Source: a virus
Taxonomy: Duplodnaviria > Caudoviricetes
Length of the DNA: 64,000 nt
IMG/VR virus record: IMGVR_UViG_3300036762_000065
Span: 1-64,000 of that record
Strand: one strand, 5' to 3'
Position 1 is the first letter of the stretch, and every line of letters begins with the position of its first letter. Positions 8,005 to 15,948 of the stretch are shown piece after piece. The translations under genes and the position numbers were made by a program. The notes under the pieces are model-generated. The model had not been told where the DNA came from, made no database searches, and saw only the letters and a list, made by a program, of their open reading frames with translations.

Positions 8005-8029
8005 GTCGGACTTGTTCCGACTTTTTTTT
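8003..8029 (+). terminator. Rho-independent terminator
   Basis: AAGTCGGA-CTTGT-TCCGACTT followed by a T-run. Confidence 0.85.
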
Positions 8030-8607
8030 GTTTCAAAATAACGTTAAACAGTGCTATTTTTGAAGTTATTGGGTAGTTTTTAGGTATATATCAAAAAGTT
8101 ATAAGCATTTCTTCCAACCTGTCGTTGAGGGTTTTACGGTTTTAGCCAAGTTTTAATTAAAACTTGTAAAAAACTATATAAACAACAATATTCCATACCT
8201 TTTTTGTTGTTTTATGTTCAGGGAAACCGAGCTATTTTCTATGCCTTTTTGATGTTTTTAAATAAAACAGGTTAAATCCAAAAAAAAGCAGCTCCAAGTT
8301 ATTGATTTATAATGTATATAACAAAAAAGTCTAACAAAAACGCCTAAAATCGAAAACCAATAGTGTAAAGTCTCTTTATCTTTTAAATGATTACATTTAG
8401 ATATGACTCATAGAGTCTCCTAAGAAAAAATAAAATAAAGCCGTGCGAAGCACTCCATTAAAGTAATATAAATTGTTTTTGTAATCAGACAGTAAAAAAG
8501 AGTATAGTAAATTGTAAAACAGGATAACCCTAACCTAATTTTTTAAGTTCTTCCAAGAATTAGTCTTACTACTTTCATTCTTACAGTAGTATTGGACTAC
8601 AAACAAT

Positions 8608-8655
8608 GTTTAGGAGTTTAGGAGTTTAGGAGTTTAGGAGTTTAGGAGTTTAGGA
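8608..8655. repeat. Six tandem copies of the 8-bp unit GTTTAGGA (iteron-like)
   Basis: Read directly; lies in the longest non-coding region of the window. Confidence 0.95.
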
Positions 8656-8656
8656 C

Positions 8657-8731
8657 TGTGGTCCTTCGGACCACACGTGCTTCGCACGGTTTTAATCTTT
8701 TCTTACCTACGGTACGGTTTCCTTCGGAAAC
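8657..8731 (-). other. Cluster of four short hairpins with C-GNA-G triloops on the - strand (candidate origin or ssDNA signal)
   Basis: + strand reads TGTGGTCC-TTC-GGACCACA, CGTGC-TTC-GCACG, TACC-TAC-GGTA and GTTTCC-TTC-GGAAAC. Confidence 0.6.
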
Positions 8732-8839
8732 AGGACATCTATGAACTAATGTTCCCAGCACTTTATTATGCGACTTTTTGTCGCATTTTTTATGCAAAAA
8801 TAAACTGTAAATTCTCTCTTAAACAGAGAGTGTTTTATT

Positions 8840-9019
8840 ATGATGAAAAAATTTATAGAATGGCTAGAGCGTTATTTTATGGCAGATATTTCTGAATACG
8901 AAGAATGTCCATATTGCACAAACGTTGAATTTGTAAGTTTCTGTTGCCACTGTTCAGGTAGCGGTTACGTTAGAATAGCAAACCAAGAGGAGATTGAAAA
9001 TGACACAACGCATGACTAA
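8840..9019 (+). CDS. Small zinc-finger protein (59 aa, below the ORF-track cutoff)
   Basis: MMKKFIEWLERYF...CPYC...CCHCSGSGYV; preceded by TGTAAATT and a GAGAG SD-like sequence. Confidence 0.65.
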   Translation: MMKKFIEWLERYFMADISEYEECPYCTNVEFVSFCCHCSGSGYVRIANQEEIENDTTHD

Positions 9020-9611
9020 AGGTGCTTCTACAGTAAAGGACTTAGCTAAAGCTAGTGCTGACTACAACCCGCGAACAATCACAGAAAGAGAACTAAACGG
9101 ACTTAAACATTCGTATGATACGTTTGGGGATTTGAGCGGTATCGTGTTGAACATACGTACAGGTACTCTTGTATCTGGACACCAGCGCATAAAAACACTT
9201 AAAGGAAAGAAAAGTCGTATTGAAAAACATCCGCACACAGATAGCTACGGTACGGTTGCCACAGGCTGGGTTGAATACAAATCTGCTAACGCTGACCATA
9301 TATCAAAGATTCCCTATCGTGAGGTAGACTGGTCTGACGGTAAAATGGAAAAAGCAGCTAACATTGCTGCTAATGCTCATGGAGGGCAATTTGATAAAGA
9401 CAAGCTCGGTGCTTTACTAGAAGAACTAGAGGATGCAACGTTCGATATAGAACTAACAGGACTAGACCCTTTAACCCTGCGTAGCCTTAGAACGGCCAAA
9501 TCTGAAGGCGATAGTGTTGATCGTGAAGAAAAGCACGAAGGCTTCAAAGAATACGATGAAAACAGTTTTGAACTTGATAATTGTTGTCCACGTTGTAAAT
9601 ATAAGTGGTAG
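9000..9611 (+). CDS. ParB/Srx-like domain protein with C-terminal Zn ribbon
   Basis: ADYNPR...LVSGHQR ParB-N motifs; terminal CPRCKYKW; GAGGAG SD before ATG 9000. Confidence 0.85.
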   Translation: MTQRMTKGASTVKDLAKASADYNPRTITERELNGLKHSYDTFGDLSGIVLNIRTGTLVSGHQRIKTLKGKKSRIEKHPHTDSYGTVATGWVEYKSANADHISKIPYREVDWSDGKMEKAANIAANAHGGQFDKDKLGALLEELEDATFDIELTGLDPLTLRSLRTAKSEGDSVDREEKHEGFKEYDENSFELDNCCPRCKYKW

Positions 9612-9614
9612 ATT

Positions 9615-11912
9615 ATGTCTAAATTAATAGAGTACAATAGCACTGAAATAAAAGCAGGTACTGGTGTTGCACGTAATCATTGTGCAATAGCAGAGCCTCT
9701 TGTTGGCGGGAAGTCTTTAGTTCCTTCAATGGAGCGTATTAACAAAAAGAAAAAAGACTTCACTGCAATGAGTTTTTTTGCAGGCTGCGGTGGTGCGTCT
9801 ATCGGAATGAAGATGGCAGGCTTTAATGTATTATACGCGAACGAGTTTATTCCTGCTGCGCAAGATACGTATAGACTAAATCATCCAGATACACTACTCG
9901 ATCCTCGTGATATACGAAAAGTGTGTCCTAAGAAACTGTTGAAAAAGCTTGGACTTAAGCGTGGAGAATTAGACCATCTCGATTTAAGTCCTCCTTGTTT
10001 TGCACCAGGTACAATGATACACACAAATCATGGATTTAAACGCATAGAAGATGTTGTTATAGGAGATAATGTTCTTACTCATACACAGGAGTTTCATCCT
10101 GTGTATGATACAATGGTTCGTAACTACTCAGGCCGCATGTATCGTCTAAAAACTATGGGCTCTATGACAACAGAGGTTACACCAGAGCACCCTTACTATG
10201 TGCGAAGAAAGAAAGGTATAAATAAATACTCATTAGATAAACCTATATGGGTAGAAGCGCAAAATCTACAGAGAGGTGATTATGTTGGTATAGCTGTAAA
10301 TCAGCTAAATGATAACAATCCTTGGTGTGGATTCTCAGACATACGAGAAAAAAGACCAGAACTTCGTGCATATAGATACAAATGGAAAAGTACTCACGTT
10401 GTATATAGGGAGTTAAATGCTTTGCCTATACATCTTAACGATTTTTGGTGGGTAGTAGGCAGATTTGTCGGAGATGGTTGGATAACACATAAAGATCAAC
10501 CAGAACATAGAAATCCAAGGAAACGTGTTAAGAGATTCGTTCGTATTTGTTGCGATAAAACAGACGGTGGAGTAGAACTTCGCGCTATAACAAGTCGATT
10601 GGACGCTTGTAATTTCTCCTATAAAATTTTGGAACGTAGAACGGCATATAGAATCTCTTTATTGAAATCCAGAGAGCTATGTGAATTTCTTTTGCAATTT
10701 GGACAAGGCGCTAAGAATAAGAGAATTCCAGGTTCAGTCCTCTCTATGCCTAAGAGTCTGCTATTGCGATTTATACAAGGTTATATATCTGCTGATGGTA
10801 GTCGACGTGGGTACGGTAAATTCAGATTCAATACTGTCAGTAGGGAATTAGCTATAGGCATAGTACACTGCATCAATAAAGTTTTTGGAAAATCTAGTGG
10901 GAAGATAGGATGTATATCGTCTGAAAAATTGATCAAATATGGATGCGGTGTAATAGAAGGTAGAAAAGTAAACGTATCCGATCGTTACGGTGCTTCATTT
11001 AACTTATTCTCCGATCCAGCGCGCGAACAGTTTATACAAGAAGAGGCTAATGGCATAATATGGGTTCCAGTACGCTCTATTGAGGAATTTCAATATAAAG
11101 GACGTGTATACAATATGTCTGTTGAGAACGATGAAACATACACGGCAAACAATTTAATTGTTCATAACTGTAAAGGCTTTTCTACAGCAGGTGTGCAAGA
11201 AGACGGTTGGAATAAAGAAGTAATGTATTCTGATGGTGTTTATCAACGAGTAGATGATTTGTTTGGTGAAGGCGTCAGGATGTTGATAGGACTAAAACCA
11301 AAAACGTTTCTTGCTGAAAATGTTGCTGGCCTTATCAAAGGTAGTTCGCGCGGTATGTTTATCGAAACACTTAACGATTTTAAAGCATGTGGCTATCGCG
11401 TTAAAGCAGCATTGATCGACCCTGTTGTGTTAGGAGCTCCACAGACGCGGGAGCGTATGATATTTATAGGAGTACGTAATGATCTAAAGATGGACCCTGT
11501 ATTTCCTACGTTGAAAAAACGCACTCCTGTTCGTGTTACTGATGTACTTCCGCATATACGTCTGATAAAAACAAAAGTTCGCAATATGCTAACATATGTT
11601 CCTGCAACAAGACCCAGCCCTACAATAGTAGCCTCAGATTTTGATACAGGGGAGAACGCTAGTTTTTCTTGTGGAGGTTGGTGCGAAGACGACCTAGGAC
11701 GTAGACGTAAATACAATCTATCTGAATTACGCAGATTGATGTGCTTTCCAGACGACTTCAAACTTAGCGGTACCCCTCGCCAACAGTGGGAAAGACTAGG
11801 TAGAAGTCATTTACCTCTTCAAGTATACCACTTAACAAAAGCTGTCCGCACAAACATACTAGAAGTTTACTACGACAGCAAAGGCGCGGATTATTCAGAC
11901 ACAATTAAATGA
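9615..11912 (+). CDS. DNA cytosine-C5 methyltransferase-family enzyme (probable carboxymethyltransferase), intein-containing
   Basis: Motif I FFAGCGG, IV PP|CKGFS, VI ENV, VIII QTRER, IX ELRRLMCFPDDF, and X LGRS in place of the usual GNS/GNA. Confidence 0.93.
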   Translation: MSKLIEYNSTEIKAGTGVARNHCAIAEPLVGGKSLVPSMERINKKKKDFTAMSFFAGCGGASIGMKMAGFNVLYANEFIPAAQDTYRLNHPDTLLDPRDIRKVCPKKLLKKLGLKRGELDHLDLSPPCFAPGTMIHTNHGFKRIEDVVIGDNVLTHTQEFHPVYDTMVRNYSGRMYRLKTMGSMTTEVTPEHPYYVRRKKGINKYSLDKPIWVEAQNLQRGDYVGIAVNQLNDNNPWCGFSDIREKRPELRAYRYKWKSTHVVYRELNALPIHLNDFWWVVGRFVGDGWITHKDQPEHRNPRKRVKRFVRICCDKTDGGVELRAITSRLDACNFSYKILERRTAYRISLLKSRELCEFLLQFGQGAKNKRIPGSVLSMPKSLLLRFIQGYISADGSRRGYGKFRFNTVSRELAIGIVHCINKVFGKSSGKIGCISSEKLIKYGCGVIEGRKVNVSDRYGASFNLFSDPAREQFIQEEANGIIWVPVRSIEEFQYKGRVYNMSVENDETYTANNLIVHNCKGFSTAGVQEDGWNKEVMYSDGVYQRVDDLFGEGVRMLIGLKPKTFLAENVAGLIKGSSRGMFIETLNDFKACGYRVKAALIDPVVLGAPQTRERMIFIGVRNDLKMDPVFPTLKKRTPVRVTDVLPHIRLIKTKVRNMLTYVPATRPSPTIVASDFDTGENASFSCGGWCEDDLGRRRKYNLSELRRLMCFPDDFKLSGTPRQQWERLGRSHLPLQVYHLTKAVRTNILEVYYDSKGADYSDTIK
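9996..11168 (+). mobile_element. Intein (391 aa) with LAGLIDADG homing endonuclease
   Basis: Begins CFAPGT; block B TPEHP; GRFVGDG and GYISADG LAGLIDADG motifs; ends VYNMSV...VHN|C. Confidence 0.95.
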
Positions 11913-11920
11913 GGTGATGT

Positions 11921-12187
11921 ATGGAAGCTTCATGCGTTGAGCAGTTTGAACTTTCGGAAATAAAGGATTTAATGGATCATATTGATCTGGTTGATAAACG
12001 AATTATCGCGTTGCTGAAAGTACGTATAGGTTTAAGTTTCGATATGGATGTAGCTAAAAAACAATTAGGAGTTAACTGTAACGATGTTAATCTAAGACAT
12101 ATTAAACTTAGAACGTATAGAAGCCTAGCCGTTAAATACGATATTGATCCTGATATAGTTGAGAGCGTATTTAAAGCATTAGTGTAA
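11921..12187 (+). CDS. Chorismate mutase (AroQ / CM_2)-like protein
   Basis: IDLVDKRIIALLKVR...AKKQLG...D...DPDIVESVF pattern; some catalytic positions diverged. Confidence 0.75.
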   Translation: MEASCVEQFELSEIKDLMDHIDLVDKRIIALLKVRIGLSFDMDVAKKQLGVNCNDVNLRHIKLRTYRSLAVKYDIDPDIVESVFKALV

Positions 12188-12190
12188 ATA
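12183..12190 (+). promoter_or_regulatory. TGTAAATA motif upstream of the cmoA-like gene
   Basis: Recurrent motif at gene starts. Confidence 0.5.
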
Positions 12191-12223
12191 AATAGTGTGT
12201 TAAATAATTCAGGTGATAGTAAA

Positions 12224-12976
12224 ATGACTGTATTCAATAGCAGCGAACTTTGTGATATAAATATTGATAAGGTTGTTCCAAAAGAAAAATGGGAATTTGA
12301 CGGTGCTGTAGCAGACTGTTTTGATAATATGTTATCTAGGTCTATTCCTCTATATGATCAGATGCGAACTCTGTGTTATAAAATAGGAAGACGCTTTATA
12401 ACAGAAGAGTCTGCTATTATGGATTTAGGTGCCTCACGAGGAGAAGCCTTACGTCCTTTTATAGAAGACAATACAGCCAAGTCTTTTATAGCTATCGAAA
12501 TAGCAGAGCCTATGCGTAAAGTTCTGATAGAGTTATACGGAAATAATGATAAGTTTGTTTTAGCCGACATACCTTCAAGTGATCTACGTTCGTTTGATTC
12601 CGCTAATTACAAAGGCCAACATACTAATTTAATCTTATCAATTTTAACATTGCAGTTTACTCCTATTGAATATAGGATGCATATTATTCAAGCTATTTAC
12701 GACTCTCTTGAAGTAGGAGGAGCTTTTCTTTTTGTAGAAAAGGTGTTAGGAACCTCTCCTGTTATTGACAAAATTTTAGTTGATAACTATTATGAGTTTA
12801 AGAATGCCAACGGATATTCATACGATGACATACAGCGAAAGAAAGCCAGCTTAGAGGGTGTGTTGGTTCCTGTGACAGCCTCTTGGAATGAGGATATCTT
12901 AAAAGGAGCAGGCTTCAAACACGTTGATTGCTTCTATAGACATTTGAACTTCTGTGGATGGATTGCTATAAAATGA
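12224..12976 (+). CDS. cmoA: Carboxy-S-adenosyl-L-methionine synthase (CmoA-like)
   Basis: WEFDGAVADCFDNMLSRSIPLY, DLGASRG, LTLQF, EK and FKNANGYS...KKASLEGVL match CmoA signatures; ATG 12224 with AGGTG SD. Confidence 0.88.
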   Translation: MTVFNSSELCDINIDKVVPKEKWEFDGAVADCFDNMLSRSIPLYDQMRTLCYKIGRRFITEESAIMDLGASRGEALRPFIEDNTAKSFIAIEIAEPMRKVLIELYGNNDKFVLADIPSSDLRSFDSANYKGQHTNLILSILTLQFTPIEYRMHIIQAIYDSLEVGGAFLFVEKVLGTSPVIDKILVDNYYEFKNANGYSYDDIQRKKASLEGVLVPVTASWNEDILKGAGFKHVDCFYRHLNFCGWIAIK

Positions 12977-13848
12977 GCAGGTCTGAAACTACCAATAAAA
13001 TTGGACAAATACGCAGACAAAAAGTCCTTGACTCTTATGCAAGGGAGCCTAACATAAGGCAAGCCCTTCTTGATACTATGGGATTTATACCGAAAGATCA
13101 GAAAGTGTGTGTCTTCTTGTCTGGAGGTATAGATAGTCATGTTATTCTTTTTGCAGCTATGGAGTCAGGACTCGATGTGAGCACTACGTCCTTTACACTA
13201 GACACTCACGATAGTACAGACTTTAAAATAGCGAAAGCGACCTCAGAAGAGTTCAAGTTAGACTTCAATCCTGTTCGTTTAGACTCATCTGAAAAGCACT
13301 TAAAGAAGTGGGTTCGTTACGCCACAGGTACTTTAGGACTTGATTCTAAAAGTTCTATAGAATGTACGTGGCCACTTTATGTAACCATTCTTGCAAACAA
13401 AGACAAGAAGCATTTGATGATGGGGCTTGGAGGCGATTCTTATTTCTTACTAGCCAAAGGCTACTCTATGCACTGTAGAGATATGGTTGCAGAAGTAAGA
13501 AATAAAGCATTCAGAAGATCATTGATACAGAATTCTGTCGTAAAGAATTTAGCTTTCCGTAACGAACAAGTTGTACATCTGCCGTTTTTTGAACTCGGTA
13601 GGGTGTATACAGAACTTGAAAACACAACAGATTACAGTAAACTTAATACGCCTCAAAAATCGTACTATCATAGTGCTTTTCCTGAGTTGCGTAAAAGGTG
13701 TAAAATAAGAGCACACCAGAACTTCCAGTTAGGAGATACCTGCATATCTAAAAACTTCAGCGATAAACTTCTCAACTCGGATTGGAATACTAGAAACAGT
13801 AAAGCAATTATAGCAATATATAATGATGTTATTGCTAATAAAGTTTAA
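12973..13848 (+). CDS. Asparagine synthetase-like ATP-dependent amide ligase (no glutaminase domain)
   Basis: PP-loop LSGGIDS, GLGGDSYF and LPFF; ATGA overlap with the cmoA stop. Confidence 0.82.
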   Translation: MSRSETTNKIGQIRRQKVLDSYAREPNIRQALLDTMGFIPKDQKVCVFLSGGIDSHVILFAAMESGLDVSTTSFTLDTHDSTDFKIAKATSEEFKLDFNPVRLDSSEKHLKKWVRYATGTLGLDSKSSIECTWPLYVTILANKDKKHLMMGLGGDSYFLLAKGYSMHCRDMVAEVRNKAFRRSLIQNSVVKNLAFRNEQVVHLPFFELGRVYTELENTTDYSKLNTPQKSYYHSAFPELRKRCKIRAHQNFQLGDTCISKNFSDKLLNSDWNTRNSKAIIAIYNDVIANKV

Positions 13849-13868
13849 ATTTATTTACAACTTAAAAC

Positions 13869-13876
13869 TGTAAATA
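13869..13876 (+). promoter_or_regulatory. AAAACTGTAAATA promoter-like motif
   Basis: Recurrent motif; inverted copy at 13852-13859. Confidence 0.55.
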
Positions 13877-13948: not shown

Positions 13949-14053
13949 ATGAAAAATTATGAGCCAGAAATGACTTCTAAGTTCGATGAGCCAGAAGAGC
14001 CAGAAATGACTTCTAAGTTCGATGAGCCAGAAGAGCCAGAAGTTGTTGCCTAG
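13949..14053 (+). CDS. 34-aa acidic repeat peptide MKNY(EPEMTSKFDEPE)2EPEVVA
   Basis: AAGAGG SD, its own promoter-like motif and terminator; 36-bp direct repeat at 13961-14032. Confidence 0.7.
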   Translation: MKNYEPEMTSKFDEPEEPEMTSKFDEPEEPEVVA

Positions 14054-14073: not shown

Positions 14074-14098
14074 AAGGCGGGCAATTGCCCGCCTTTTT
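14074..14098 (+). terminator. Rho-independent terminator
   Basis: AAGGCGGGC-AATT-GCCCGCCTT followed by TTT. Confidence 0.85.
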
Positions 14099-14115: not shown

Positions 14116-14742
14116 ATGAAAAACTTAAACATAATACCTTTGATGTTAAAACCGAAATCAATATGTCTACGTGAAGGTGACGCTCAGATATACTCTTTAC
14201 AAAATTTTCTATCTGAAAAGGTGTGTAAAGAGCTTATAGAAGAGTCAAAACATTTTCTTACACCTAGTAAGGTAGGTTCGGAGTACGGGGTAATTGTCGA
14301 TAGTTCTGTTAGGACAAGCTCGACAGCAAAGTTAAGTGAGGTTTCTGATAATCCTATGATTGCCGAAGTTCATAGTATGTTATTCGACCTATACGGATAC
14401 TTTGAATTGCCTGGGGATCCTGTCTCTGTACATAACTATCAACTTGGCCAAGAGTTTAAAGATCACCACGACTTTCACGACACAGAAAAAAGAAAAGAAC
14501 GTATAGCAAAAGAAGGTCAACGTACTTGGACATTCGTTGTTTACTTAGATGAAGATTTCGAAGGCGGCGAGACTGTATTTCCAGAGCTTGATCTTACTGT
14601 AGTACCGAAGACAGGACAGCTACTTGCTTGGAACAACCTGTCTTCTACAGGTGAAGGTAATACAAAGACACTACATAGATCAAACCCTGTAACAAAAGGA
14701 GAAAAGAATATCATAACCAAATGGTTCAGATCGTTTATATGA
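14116..14742 (+). CDS. 2OG-Fe(II) oxygenase, prolyl 4-hydroxylase-like
   Basis: NFLS...RTS, Y.LGQEFKDHHD (HxD), RTWTFVVYL, GGETVFP, TLH and KNIITKW. Confidence 0.9.
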   Translation: MKNLNIIPLMLKPKSICLREGDAQIYSLQNFLSEKVCKELIEESKHFLTPSKVGSEYGVIVDSSVRTSSTAKLSEVSDNPMIAEVHSMLFDLYGYFELPGDPVSVHNYQLGQEFKDHHDFHDTEKRKERIAKEGQRTWTFVVYLDEDFEGGETVFPELDLTVVPKTGQLLAWNNLSSTGEGNTKTLHRSNPVTKGEKNIITKWFRSFI

Positions 14743-14758
14743 TGTTCGATAAAACACT

Positions 14759-15199
14759 ATGAATCCTTTTACGCAATTAAAAACACAAGTTAGAAGTGCG
14801 TTAGAGAAAGAAACTAAGCTTTCTCCAGAAGAACGAAAACAACACCAATGGCAATTCCTTACTACAGTAAATGGAGTCACTTATATTGTAGGTAAAGGCG
14901 GCGCTAATACAATGTTCTATATGATAGGCAAAGGCGAACGTAAGATATGTATGCCGAAAGAAATGCTCGATGTTATAGGAACATGGGGAACATCTAAGTA
15001 TCCTATGTACGCTATATGCAAGAAGAAAGGAAGATACACACATGGACCAAATCCTTCATTAGAAGCAATGTTTGATGAGGATCCTGCTGTAGGTAGTTTC
15101 CTCGTAGGGTTTACTAACGATGGGCGTGTTCATCGTCTTTATAAGTATGTTAGTGGACTTATGGGATCGGAATGGGTAGAATTTAAAGCGAGCAAATAA
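14759..15199 (+). CDS. Hypothetical protein
   Basis: 146-aa ORF, TAATG-coupled to the next gene. Confidence 0.75.
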   Translation: MNPFTQLKTQVRSALEKETKLSPEERKQHQWQFLTTVNGVTYIVGKGGANTMFYMIGKGERKICMPKEMLDVIGTWGTSKYPMYAICKKKGRYTHGPNPSLEAMFDEDPAVGSFLVGFTNDGRVHRLYKYVSGLMGSEWVEFKASK

Positions 15200-15948
15200 T
15201 GCGTATAATAACTTGGAATGTAAACAGTGTTAGGGCACGACACACTCATGTTGAATCGCTGCTACATAACGAGAAGCCTAGTGTTTTATGTATGCAGGAA
15301 ACCAAGGTTGTTAATAACGAATACCCGGACTTCCCTAGCTATTCAGGAAGCTGTGTTGCTAATGGGCAGAAATCATACAATGGAGTCTCTGCCCATTGCA
15401 TTAAGCCTCCGTCCGATGTTATTGTTTCTCCTTGGCAACACGGAGAAAAGAGAGTTCTTGCTTTCACATACAACAATATAAGATTTATAAATCTATATGT
15501 TCCAATGGGAGGCAAAGATGAAAACGCTTACTCTGAAAAACTATTGTGGTTAGACAACCTTACGTTTTTTATACTCGAACAAAAGCAAGTGTATAAACAT
15601 GTTTGTATTCTAGGTGATTTTAATATCTGTCCTACAGATGATGATGTTTGGGATCCTGTTGCATGGAAAGGCAGAGTAACCTGTACAAAACCGGAACGTG
15701 ATTGGTTTAAAAATATTATAGCCTGTGGTTTTAAAGACACTCTAAAAGAACACACGGATTCAAGTGACTTTACTTGGTGGAACTATAGACGTAATGGATA
15801 CCAGCGCAATCACGGCTTAAGAATAGACTTTGTTCTTATGACCGACGATCTTGCGTCTTGTGTTGTACGTGCGGAAGTGCTTACACAATATAGGGAGATG
15901 GAAAAACCTTCAGACCATGCGCCTGTACTCGTGGAGATACGAAAATGA
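15199..15948 (+). CDS. xth: Exodeoxyribonuclease III / AP endonuclease
   Basis: TWNVNS, QETK, GQKSYNGV, GDFN, FTWWNYR, GLRIDF, SDHAP. Confidence 0.95.
   Translation: MRIITWNVNSVRARHTHVESLLHNEKPSVLCMQETKVVNNEYPDFPSYSGSCVANGQKSYNGVSAHCIKPPSDVIVSPWQHGEKRVLAFTYNNIRFINLYVPMGGKDENAYSEKLLWLDNLTFFILEQKQVYKHVCILGDFNICPTDDDVWDPVAWKGRVTCTKPERDWFKNIIACGFKDTLKEHTDSSDFTWWNYRRNGYQRNHGLRIDFVLMTDDLASCVVRAEVLTQYREMEKPSDHAPVLVEIRK

Follow-up and report, generated by a model that had tools for sequence, protein, structure and literature searches.

Among described systems, the one closest to the locus analyzed here is the CmoAXY pathway of Synechococcus phage S-B43, in which CmoA makes carboxy-S-adenosylmethionine (Cx-SAM), CmoX converts cytosine at GC to 5-carboxymethylcytosine (5cxmC), and glycine is ligated by CmoY (Yang et al., 2025, PMC12783734). 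The same study counted 5,615 CmoX homologues, defined by an SPPC motif and R350, noted their ParBc neighbours, found many CmoX contigs that have no ligase, and assigned the use of ammonia to ligases with a glutaminase domain; it left open the range of other amines ligated and the supply of prephenate, and it makes no mention of a chorismate mutase, an intein or an oxygenase (PMC12783734). Here, we describe a related cassette in a 64,000-nt stretch of viral DNA (hereafter, the window), which is bases 1-64000 of the complete 241,706-bp genome of a jumbo phage (IMG/VR record IMGVR_UViG_3300036762_000065). By sequence, this phage is related to the jumbo phages Y3, Yoloswag, AD1 and PaBG, whose published descriptions, in the passages found, list genes only ('oxygenase', 'asparagine synthase') and discuss no pathway or peptide (PMC6143709, PMC7412058).

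A first-pass annotation of this DNA described five tightly packed, co-oriented genes, from a ParB-like gene to an asparagine synthetase-like gene. All five open reading frames (ORFs) are real and lie where it placed them, with intergenic gaps of 3, 8, 36 and -4 nt, and independent assemblies hold near-identical copies of these genes, including the 88-aa chorismate mutase homologue and its TAA stop; the cassette is therefore not an assembly artefact. The cassette genes also co-occur in other phages, such as PaBG, Y3 and Yoloswag. The boundary drawn at 13848, however, was too short: the cassette reaches approximately 15199 and takes in genes for a small peptide and for an oxygenase of the prolyl 4-hydroxylase (P4H) family, both of which bear on the identity of the ligated amine.

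The peptide and P4H genes accompany one clade of ligase

The predicted ligase consists of an AsnB synthetase domain with a PP-loop, contains no glutaminase domain (PF00733 domain scan), and adjoins cmoA and cmoX; its start codon and the stop codon of cmoA overlap in ATGA (12973-12976). It is 57-60% identical to the ligases of Yoloswag, Y3 and Sen-NF and 27% identical to the glycine ligase SpCmoY, and on the ligase tree it falls in a well-supported clade separate from SpCmoY. On these sequence grounds we file it as CmoY-like and not as a glycine ligase. One ligase was present in each genome examined, and sister phages put other CmoY-like ligases in the same slot; we consider it likely that the window ligase acts on 5cxmC. 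Since it lacks a glutaminase domain, ammonia is an unlikely amine, and of the two end products proposed in the first-pass annotation, 5-carbamoylmethyl-C loses ground (the ammonia users in the published work have such a domain) while an amine conjugate stands. Carbapenam synthetase, another member of the AsnB family, acylates the ring nitrogen of proline with a carboxymethyl group.

Other cassettes carry small-molecule enzymes near the ligase. A DgcN/DUF1611 gene lies between cmoA and the ligase in L008 (6801-7856; AD1) and L021 (5965-6981), which have ligases of two different clades, and L143 (2814-6762) has the order cmoX, a gene of the ornithine cyclodeaminase/mu-crystallin family, a divergent ligase and cmoA; the second of these genes may supply another amine.

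Downstream of the window ligase lies a gene for an acidic 34-aa peptide with five E-P-E units (a sister strain has a 22-aa version), the only one of the 1,280 small ORFs of the genome to have two or more such motifs. Related peptides are 22-54 aa long; across 13 of them, each of the 105 prolines has the context [D/N/E]-P-[A/E]. Because this context is fixed while the proline codons vary, the protein is under selection, with proline as its sole invariant residue. The motif CTGTAAA occurs at most 260 nt upstream of the peptide gene in 11 of 12 peptide loci, and relatives have hairpins after the gene similar to the terminator in the window. In the adjacent oxygenase, the iron triad and the lysine that binds 2-oxoglutarate (2OG) are invariant in the alignment (H117, D119, H187 and K197), solved P4Hs are the closest structures, and no extra DNA-binding domain was seen. 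P4Hs of the collagen type act on peptide-bound proline.

Peptide and P4H accompany the ligase clade in 12 of 13 loci (L039 is the exception), and the same layout is found in Yoloswag, Y3, L011/L012, L034-L038, L040-L042 and L222. Among 50,697 phage records, the six that carry a close ligase, and no others, have a close P4H (43-44%). No P4H was found in genomes with other ligases (G001, G004, G007, PaBG and S-B43), and a ligase was absent from all 76 other viral P4H loci. The cassette P4Hs form a single clade (support 99), and the order of the trio is the same at each of three locations, namely downstream of cmoA, in the cmoX-cmoA interval, and beside recA. Peptide, P4H and ligase probably make up one functional unit.

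These data also bear on whether the locus is an ordinary CmoAXY system, in which glycine or another free host amino acid is ligated and the peptide and P4H are a separate rider, such as a hydroxylated acidic product that acts as decoy for, or inhibitor of, a host defence protein. The published enzyme does use glycine (PMC12783734), the peptide gene's own promoter-like motif and terminator would allow separate expression, and acidic repeats look like DNA mimics. Against this stand the separate clade of the ligase with its low identity to SpCmoY, the residue at position 168 (Lys or Arg in 14 of 15 other ligases, but Ser or Gly in 11 of 12 peptide-linked ones), and the fact that peptide and P4H were never seen without the clade ligase and move together with it. 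We regard an ordinary CmoAXY system as unlikely.

A scaffold peptide may feed the ligase

A ligase of its own clade, a single ligase per genome and the small-molecule enzymes of other cassettes make a scaffold peptide that feeds the ligase the simplest joint reading. CmoA would make Cx-SAM from SAM and prephenate, the latter probably the host's, and spliced CmoX would add a carboxymethyl group to C5 of cytosines in finished DNA, as membership in the pathway suggests for both enzymes. By the chemistry of its family, the ligase would then adenylate the carboxylate and form an amide, for which, we infer, neighbouring genes supply the amine. The peptide would be made in bulk as a disposable scaffold, P4H would hydroxylate its prolines, peptidases would free 4-hydroxyproline or a short fragment with it, and the ligase would cap 5cxmC with the product. 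A hydroxyproline-capped nucleoside would give [M+H]+ of about 399.15, versus 343.1 for glycine, and the modification may protect the DNA from host nucleases, by analogy with S-B43. The whole chain, including the supply of the amine by the peptide, is put forward tentatively, as possible rather than probable. We rejected as unlikely the attachment of the whole 34-aa peptide to every site: by our own estimate it would add about a quarter to the mass of the DNA at the level of S-B43, where 10% of C (about 9,400 of 94,372) is modified.

Several observations weigh against a scaffold peptide. No peptidase is evident in the cassette. The linkage is largely that of one clade, with three changes on the ligase tree, and is thus near to a single evolutionary event. 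The trio is distant from cmoA and cmoX in L035, L036, L222 and Sen-NF, and neither partial record, Sen-NF or Afa-NA1, yielded a CmoX. L039, a 10-kb contig, speaks for the linkage: P4H is missing from it, and the peptide slot has shrunk to 8 codons, while the CTGTAAA promoter-like motif, the ribosome site and the terminator are kept. The 8-codon ORF could, however, reflect assembly collapse of the repeats. In the same stretch (L039:6120-6986), the slot is followed by a 244-aa protein of no known family in place of P4H.

If the ligase instead added free proline or a proline-containing peptide piece to 5cxmC and P4H then hydroxylated the adduct, with the peptide serving as a proline store or regulator, the predicted product mass would be the same as for a scaffold peptide. 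Putative tailoring enzymes (DgcN/DUF1611) do occupy the same slot in sister cassettes. The oxygenase, however, is nearest to P4Hs that act on peptides and has no added DNA-binding domain, and the strict X-P-Y repeats resemble a P4H substrate, and we consider tailoring on the DNA quite improbable.

The loci with a distant trio raise a further alternative. Lasso-peptide cyclases and scaffold-peptide pathways such as pearlins offer parallels, namely an AsnB-like amide former beside a small peptide gene and the use of a peptide as the scaffold for a modified amino acid. The window trio could likewise be a unit of the kind that makes ribosomally synthesized and post-translationally modified peptides, in which the ligase works on the Asp/Glu side chains of the peptide, by amidation or cyclisation, as lasso cyclases do, P4H hydroxylates its prolines, and the DNA keeps bare 5cxmC. 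A precursor-like repeat peptide between two enzymes, the recA-linked group with its trio far from cmoA and cmoX, and the many CmoX contigs without a ligase (PMC12783734) would fit such a unit. Nevertheless, the tree places the ligase within the CmoY-like ligases, for which it substitutes one for one. Its gene is coupled to cmoA in the window and overlaps cmoX in L012 and L038, and the acidic residue of the repeats varies (D, N or E). Distance means little, as in Erwinia phages 15-20 kb separate cmoA from cmoX, and the recA-linked lineage has cmoA. Taken on both sides, this evidence makes a peptide-modifying unit clearly unlikely.

The presence of cmoA in the recA-linked lineage, whose contigs are 36-88 kb pieces, follows from a comparison of two records. 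Sen-NF (PV359490.1) and the 78-kb Afa-NA1 (PV550095.1) have 50 kb in common at 99.7%, and Afa-NA1 has a portal, a terminase-like gene, gyrase B and cmoA; L036 is a close relative of this phage. Both records are labelled complete and assigned to different hosts, but are in fact partial records of one jumbo phage. Sen-NF has P4H, and its record has no intergenic DNA at the peptide position. We rejected Sen-NF as evidence for a genome that has the trio but neither CmoA nor CmoX: its 108-kb record is partial, with genes abutting and no portal, terminase-like gene or gyrase B.

The methyltransferase and CmoA homologues match the published pathway

The nearest solved structure to the window methyltransferase is SpCmoX (8YF3, E 7e-41), whose cofactor contacts F25, E47, F48 and D69 align with F55, E77, F78 and D99. 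The catalytic SPPC motif is present once the intein is removed (S125-P126-P127-C519), as is the counterpart of R350 (Table 1). We file the protein as a predicted CmoX, carboxymethylation being assigned by membership in the assayed family, and consider it very likely that the first two steps, Cx-SAM synthesis and carboxymethylation, both take place. The route from Cx-SAM through 5cxmC to an amide, as the first-pass annotation had it, thus matches the published CmoA/CmoX/CmoY route. The possible novelty of this core, for which that annotation had wanted the literature checked, does not survive, as the core was published in December 2025 together with its ParBc co-occurrence (PMC12783734).

The gene for the CmoA-like protein starts 311 nt downstream of the methyltransferase gene. 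The protein matches TIGR00740 over positions 13-239, below the equivalog cut-off, and it matches the structure of E. coli CmoA (4GEK) with E 6e-23 and assayed SpCmoA with 29% identity. Arg199 of E. coli CmoA, a residue that we take to have a functional role, corresponds to Lys in the window protein, to Arg or Lys in relatives, and to a residue other than Arg in the active SpCmoA.

The dinucleotide GC is depleted in S-B43 (0.65) and not in the window phage (1.11), and CC is mildly low in the window phage and its relatives (0.69-0.89). Six-base palindromes are strongly avoided across the genome (G000), with ACTAGT, AGATCT and ATCGAT at 0 versus 38-85 expected. Deriving a target motif from palindrome avoidance was rejected, since the control, S-B43, likewise avoids GC-containing sites.

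At most of the 80 viral cmoA loci, neither CmoX nor a ligase lies within 6 kb. In seven that were inspected (L029, L147, L152, L154, L166, L184 and L196), ParB genes and a ParB-fusion protein of approximately 510 aa precede cmoA, with terminase-like genes close by. The fusion protein is phrog_5475, with a weak methyltransferase match (for example L166:4021-5535, L154:4449-6002 and L029:5439-6998, among L146-L221), and may be a different user of Cx-SAM.

The chorismate mutase homologue is degenerate

The 88-aa AroQ homologue scores 32 bits against CM_2 (cut-off 27). Conserved polar residues of the AroQ active site have been listed and are also kept by regulatory chorismate mutase domains (PMC5526877). 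Aligned with the E. coli enzyme (EcCM numbering), the window copy keeps three of seven such residues (R11, R28, K39, D48, R51, E52 and Q88): R28, K39 and D48 correspond to R35, K46 and D55, whereas R11, R51 and E52 are replaced by M18, L58 and R59, and the chain ends at the equivalent of I81, before S84 and Q88, with a shortened last helix. The working 'dedicated chorismate mutase' of the first-pass annotation is thus not supported; the protein is probably weak or dead as an enzyme, and may be a relic or a binding protein. As the phage mutase is degenerate, prephenate for CmoA probably comes from the host. Read-through of the TAA into cmoA, which is in the same frame, was rejected: S84 and Q88 are not regained in the sequence beyond the stop, independent samples show the same stop, and a separate ribosome site serves cmoA at 12224.

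Among other phages, L040 has an intact mutase gene flanked by cmoX and cmoA, and L046 has one ahead of cmoA, so the link between mutase and cassette is real. The L034 copy is more decayed than that of the window, and no mutase was found at the 80 viral cmoA loci, in four near-complete relatives, or in Y3 or Yoloswag. A 202-kb phage contig has an intact mutase (L038:135-428) approximately 4.5 kb upstream of its cassette ParB gene. The two intact copies beside cmoA, and the preserved reading frame of the window copy (one synonymous change between strains and no other), would suit the scheme of the first-pass annotation, in which an active phage mutase feeds CmoA and ammonia gives 5-carbamoylmethyl-C. 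Four of seven active-site polar residues are nonetheless lost along with part of the last helix, most relatives have no mutase, and the ligase has no glutaminase domain, which together leave this scheme highly improbable.

The methyltransferase intein and other features of the locus

All intein hallmarks were found in the methyltransferase ORF: an N-terminal Cys, a C-terminal His-Asn, a +1 Cys and endonuclease motifs. As the intein lies directly before the catalytic Cys, splicing is needed for methyltransferase activity. The first-pass annotation suggested that the intein may be distinctive, but AD1 and fHe-Yen9-02 have one at the same insertion site. Strain differences from L030 cluster in it, with 19 of the 24 amino-acid changes of the ORF.

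Table 1. Features of the cassette and its surroundings (positions in the window).
Feature	Position	Strand	Basis
Promoter-like motif AAACTGTAAA, upstream of cassette	8802..8811	+	Inferred phage promoter, by sequence
ParB-like protein, usual companion of CmoX	9000..9611	+	phrog_620 E 9e-30
Predicted CmoX precursor, cytosine C5-carboxymethyltransferase, 374 aa after splicing	9615..11912	+	PF00145 E 1e-35; best PDB match 8YF3
391-aa LAGLIDADG intein, directly before catalytic Cys of SPPC	9996..11168	+	Sequence motifs
Arg730 codon, motif X, GRS; predicted Cx-SAM selectivity residue	11802..11804	+	Aligns to SpCmoX R350 (Arg replacing Asn)
Degenerate AroQ chorismate mutase homologue, 88 aa	11921..12187	+	PF01817 (CM_2) E 1.5e-7
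CmoA, carboxy-SAM synthase homologue, 250 aa	12224..12976	+	TIGR00740 E 7e-39; 4GEK E 6e-23
CmoY-like ATP-dependent amide ligase, distinct clade	12973..13848	+	PF00733; AsnB/beta-lactam synthetase fold
Promoter-like motif before peptide gene	13865..13874	+	Sequence motif
34-aa acidic proline-repeat peptide, five E-P-E units, strong Shine-Dalgarno	13949..14053	+	ORF
Intrinsic terminator after peptide gene	14074..14095	+	9-pair stem, 7 G-C, T tail
P4H-family 2OG-Fe(II) oxygenase	14116..14742	+	B. anthracis P4H E 1e-25
146-aa protein, accompanies cassette	14759..15199	+	phrog_23597

The core of the promoter-like motif, ACTGTAAA, occurs 30 times on the plus strand and 8 times on the minus strand of the whole genome. 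The ParB-like protein has no Pfam match, and its gene has a counterpart in the equivalent position in PaBG, L012, L021, L023, L034, L038 and L040. A 59-aa ORF with two CxxC pairs (8840-9019) overlaps its start and could be the operon's first gene. Farther upstream, approximately 800 bp without a long ORF (8005-8839) contain 8-bp repeats in a run around 8608-8655, along with several hairpins, a possible origin. At the other end, the 146-aa protein has no usable Atlas match; homologues of its gene lie between cmoA and the ligase in PaBG and beside cmoA or the ligase in L012, L021 and L142. Coupled to it is a gene of the exonuclease III/AP-endonuclease family (15199-15948), which was not seen in the cassettes of relatives.

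Significance and comparison with known systems

The locus bears on both questions left open in the published work, namely the other amines ligated and the supply of prephenate (PMC12783734). The core pathway is already known, the intein is common to relatives and the mutase is degenerate. The open-access literature searched held nothing relevant on a phage P4H with DNA modification and no relevant report of a phage chorismate mutase; the peptide-P4H add-on and the rare mutase slot are the parts of the locus unpublished there. A few jumbo phages took the mutase into the cassette, where it is intact in two and decaying in two. The candidate amine source, peptide plus P4H, is also present in cultured Erwinia phages, and the predicted product has a mass that can be sought. 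Should the peptide supply the ligase, the result would be a new DNA base, a new route to a non-standard amino acid, and a first connection of DNA hypermodification with the modification of ribosomal peptides, and the ligase may accept secondary amines, which would be useful for DNA labelling. If it does not, the locus is one among thousands of CmoX cassettes.

Like S-B43, the window phage has a CmoA homologue, a methyltransferase with SPPC and R350, an AsnB-like ligase without glutaminase, a ParB neighbour and no cmoB nearby. It differs from S-B43 in the clade of its ligase, in a diverged target-recognition region of the methyltransferase (118 identities over approximately 373 aa), and in having the intein, the mutase-like gene, the repeat peptide, P4H and the 146-aa gene. 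PaBG shares the order ParB-dcm-cmoA-hyp-ligase, and Y3 and Yoloswag share cmoA-ligase-peptide-P4H but have no mutase. Compared with AroQ mutases (E. coli EcCM, 1ECM), the window copy exceeds the PF01817 cut-off and retains R28, K39 and D48; unlike those enzymes and the regulatory mutase-like domains, it has R11, R51 and E52 replaced and stops short of S84 and Q88. The parallel with lasso-peptide and pearlin systems lies in an ATP-dependent AsnB-like enzyme beside a small peptide gene and in the idea of a scaffold peptide, whereas neither a lasso leader motif nor a B protein or transporter was seen in the window and the ligase groups with CmoY-like proteins. Finally, the window P4H has the HxD...H iron triad and the 2OG-binding Lys of collagen-type P4Hs (B. 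anthracis 3ITQ/5HV0; algal and human), but it belongs to a phage clade of its own and adjoins a glycine-less [D/N/E]-P-[A/E] peptide and a putative DNA-modification ligase.

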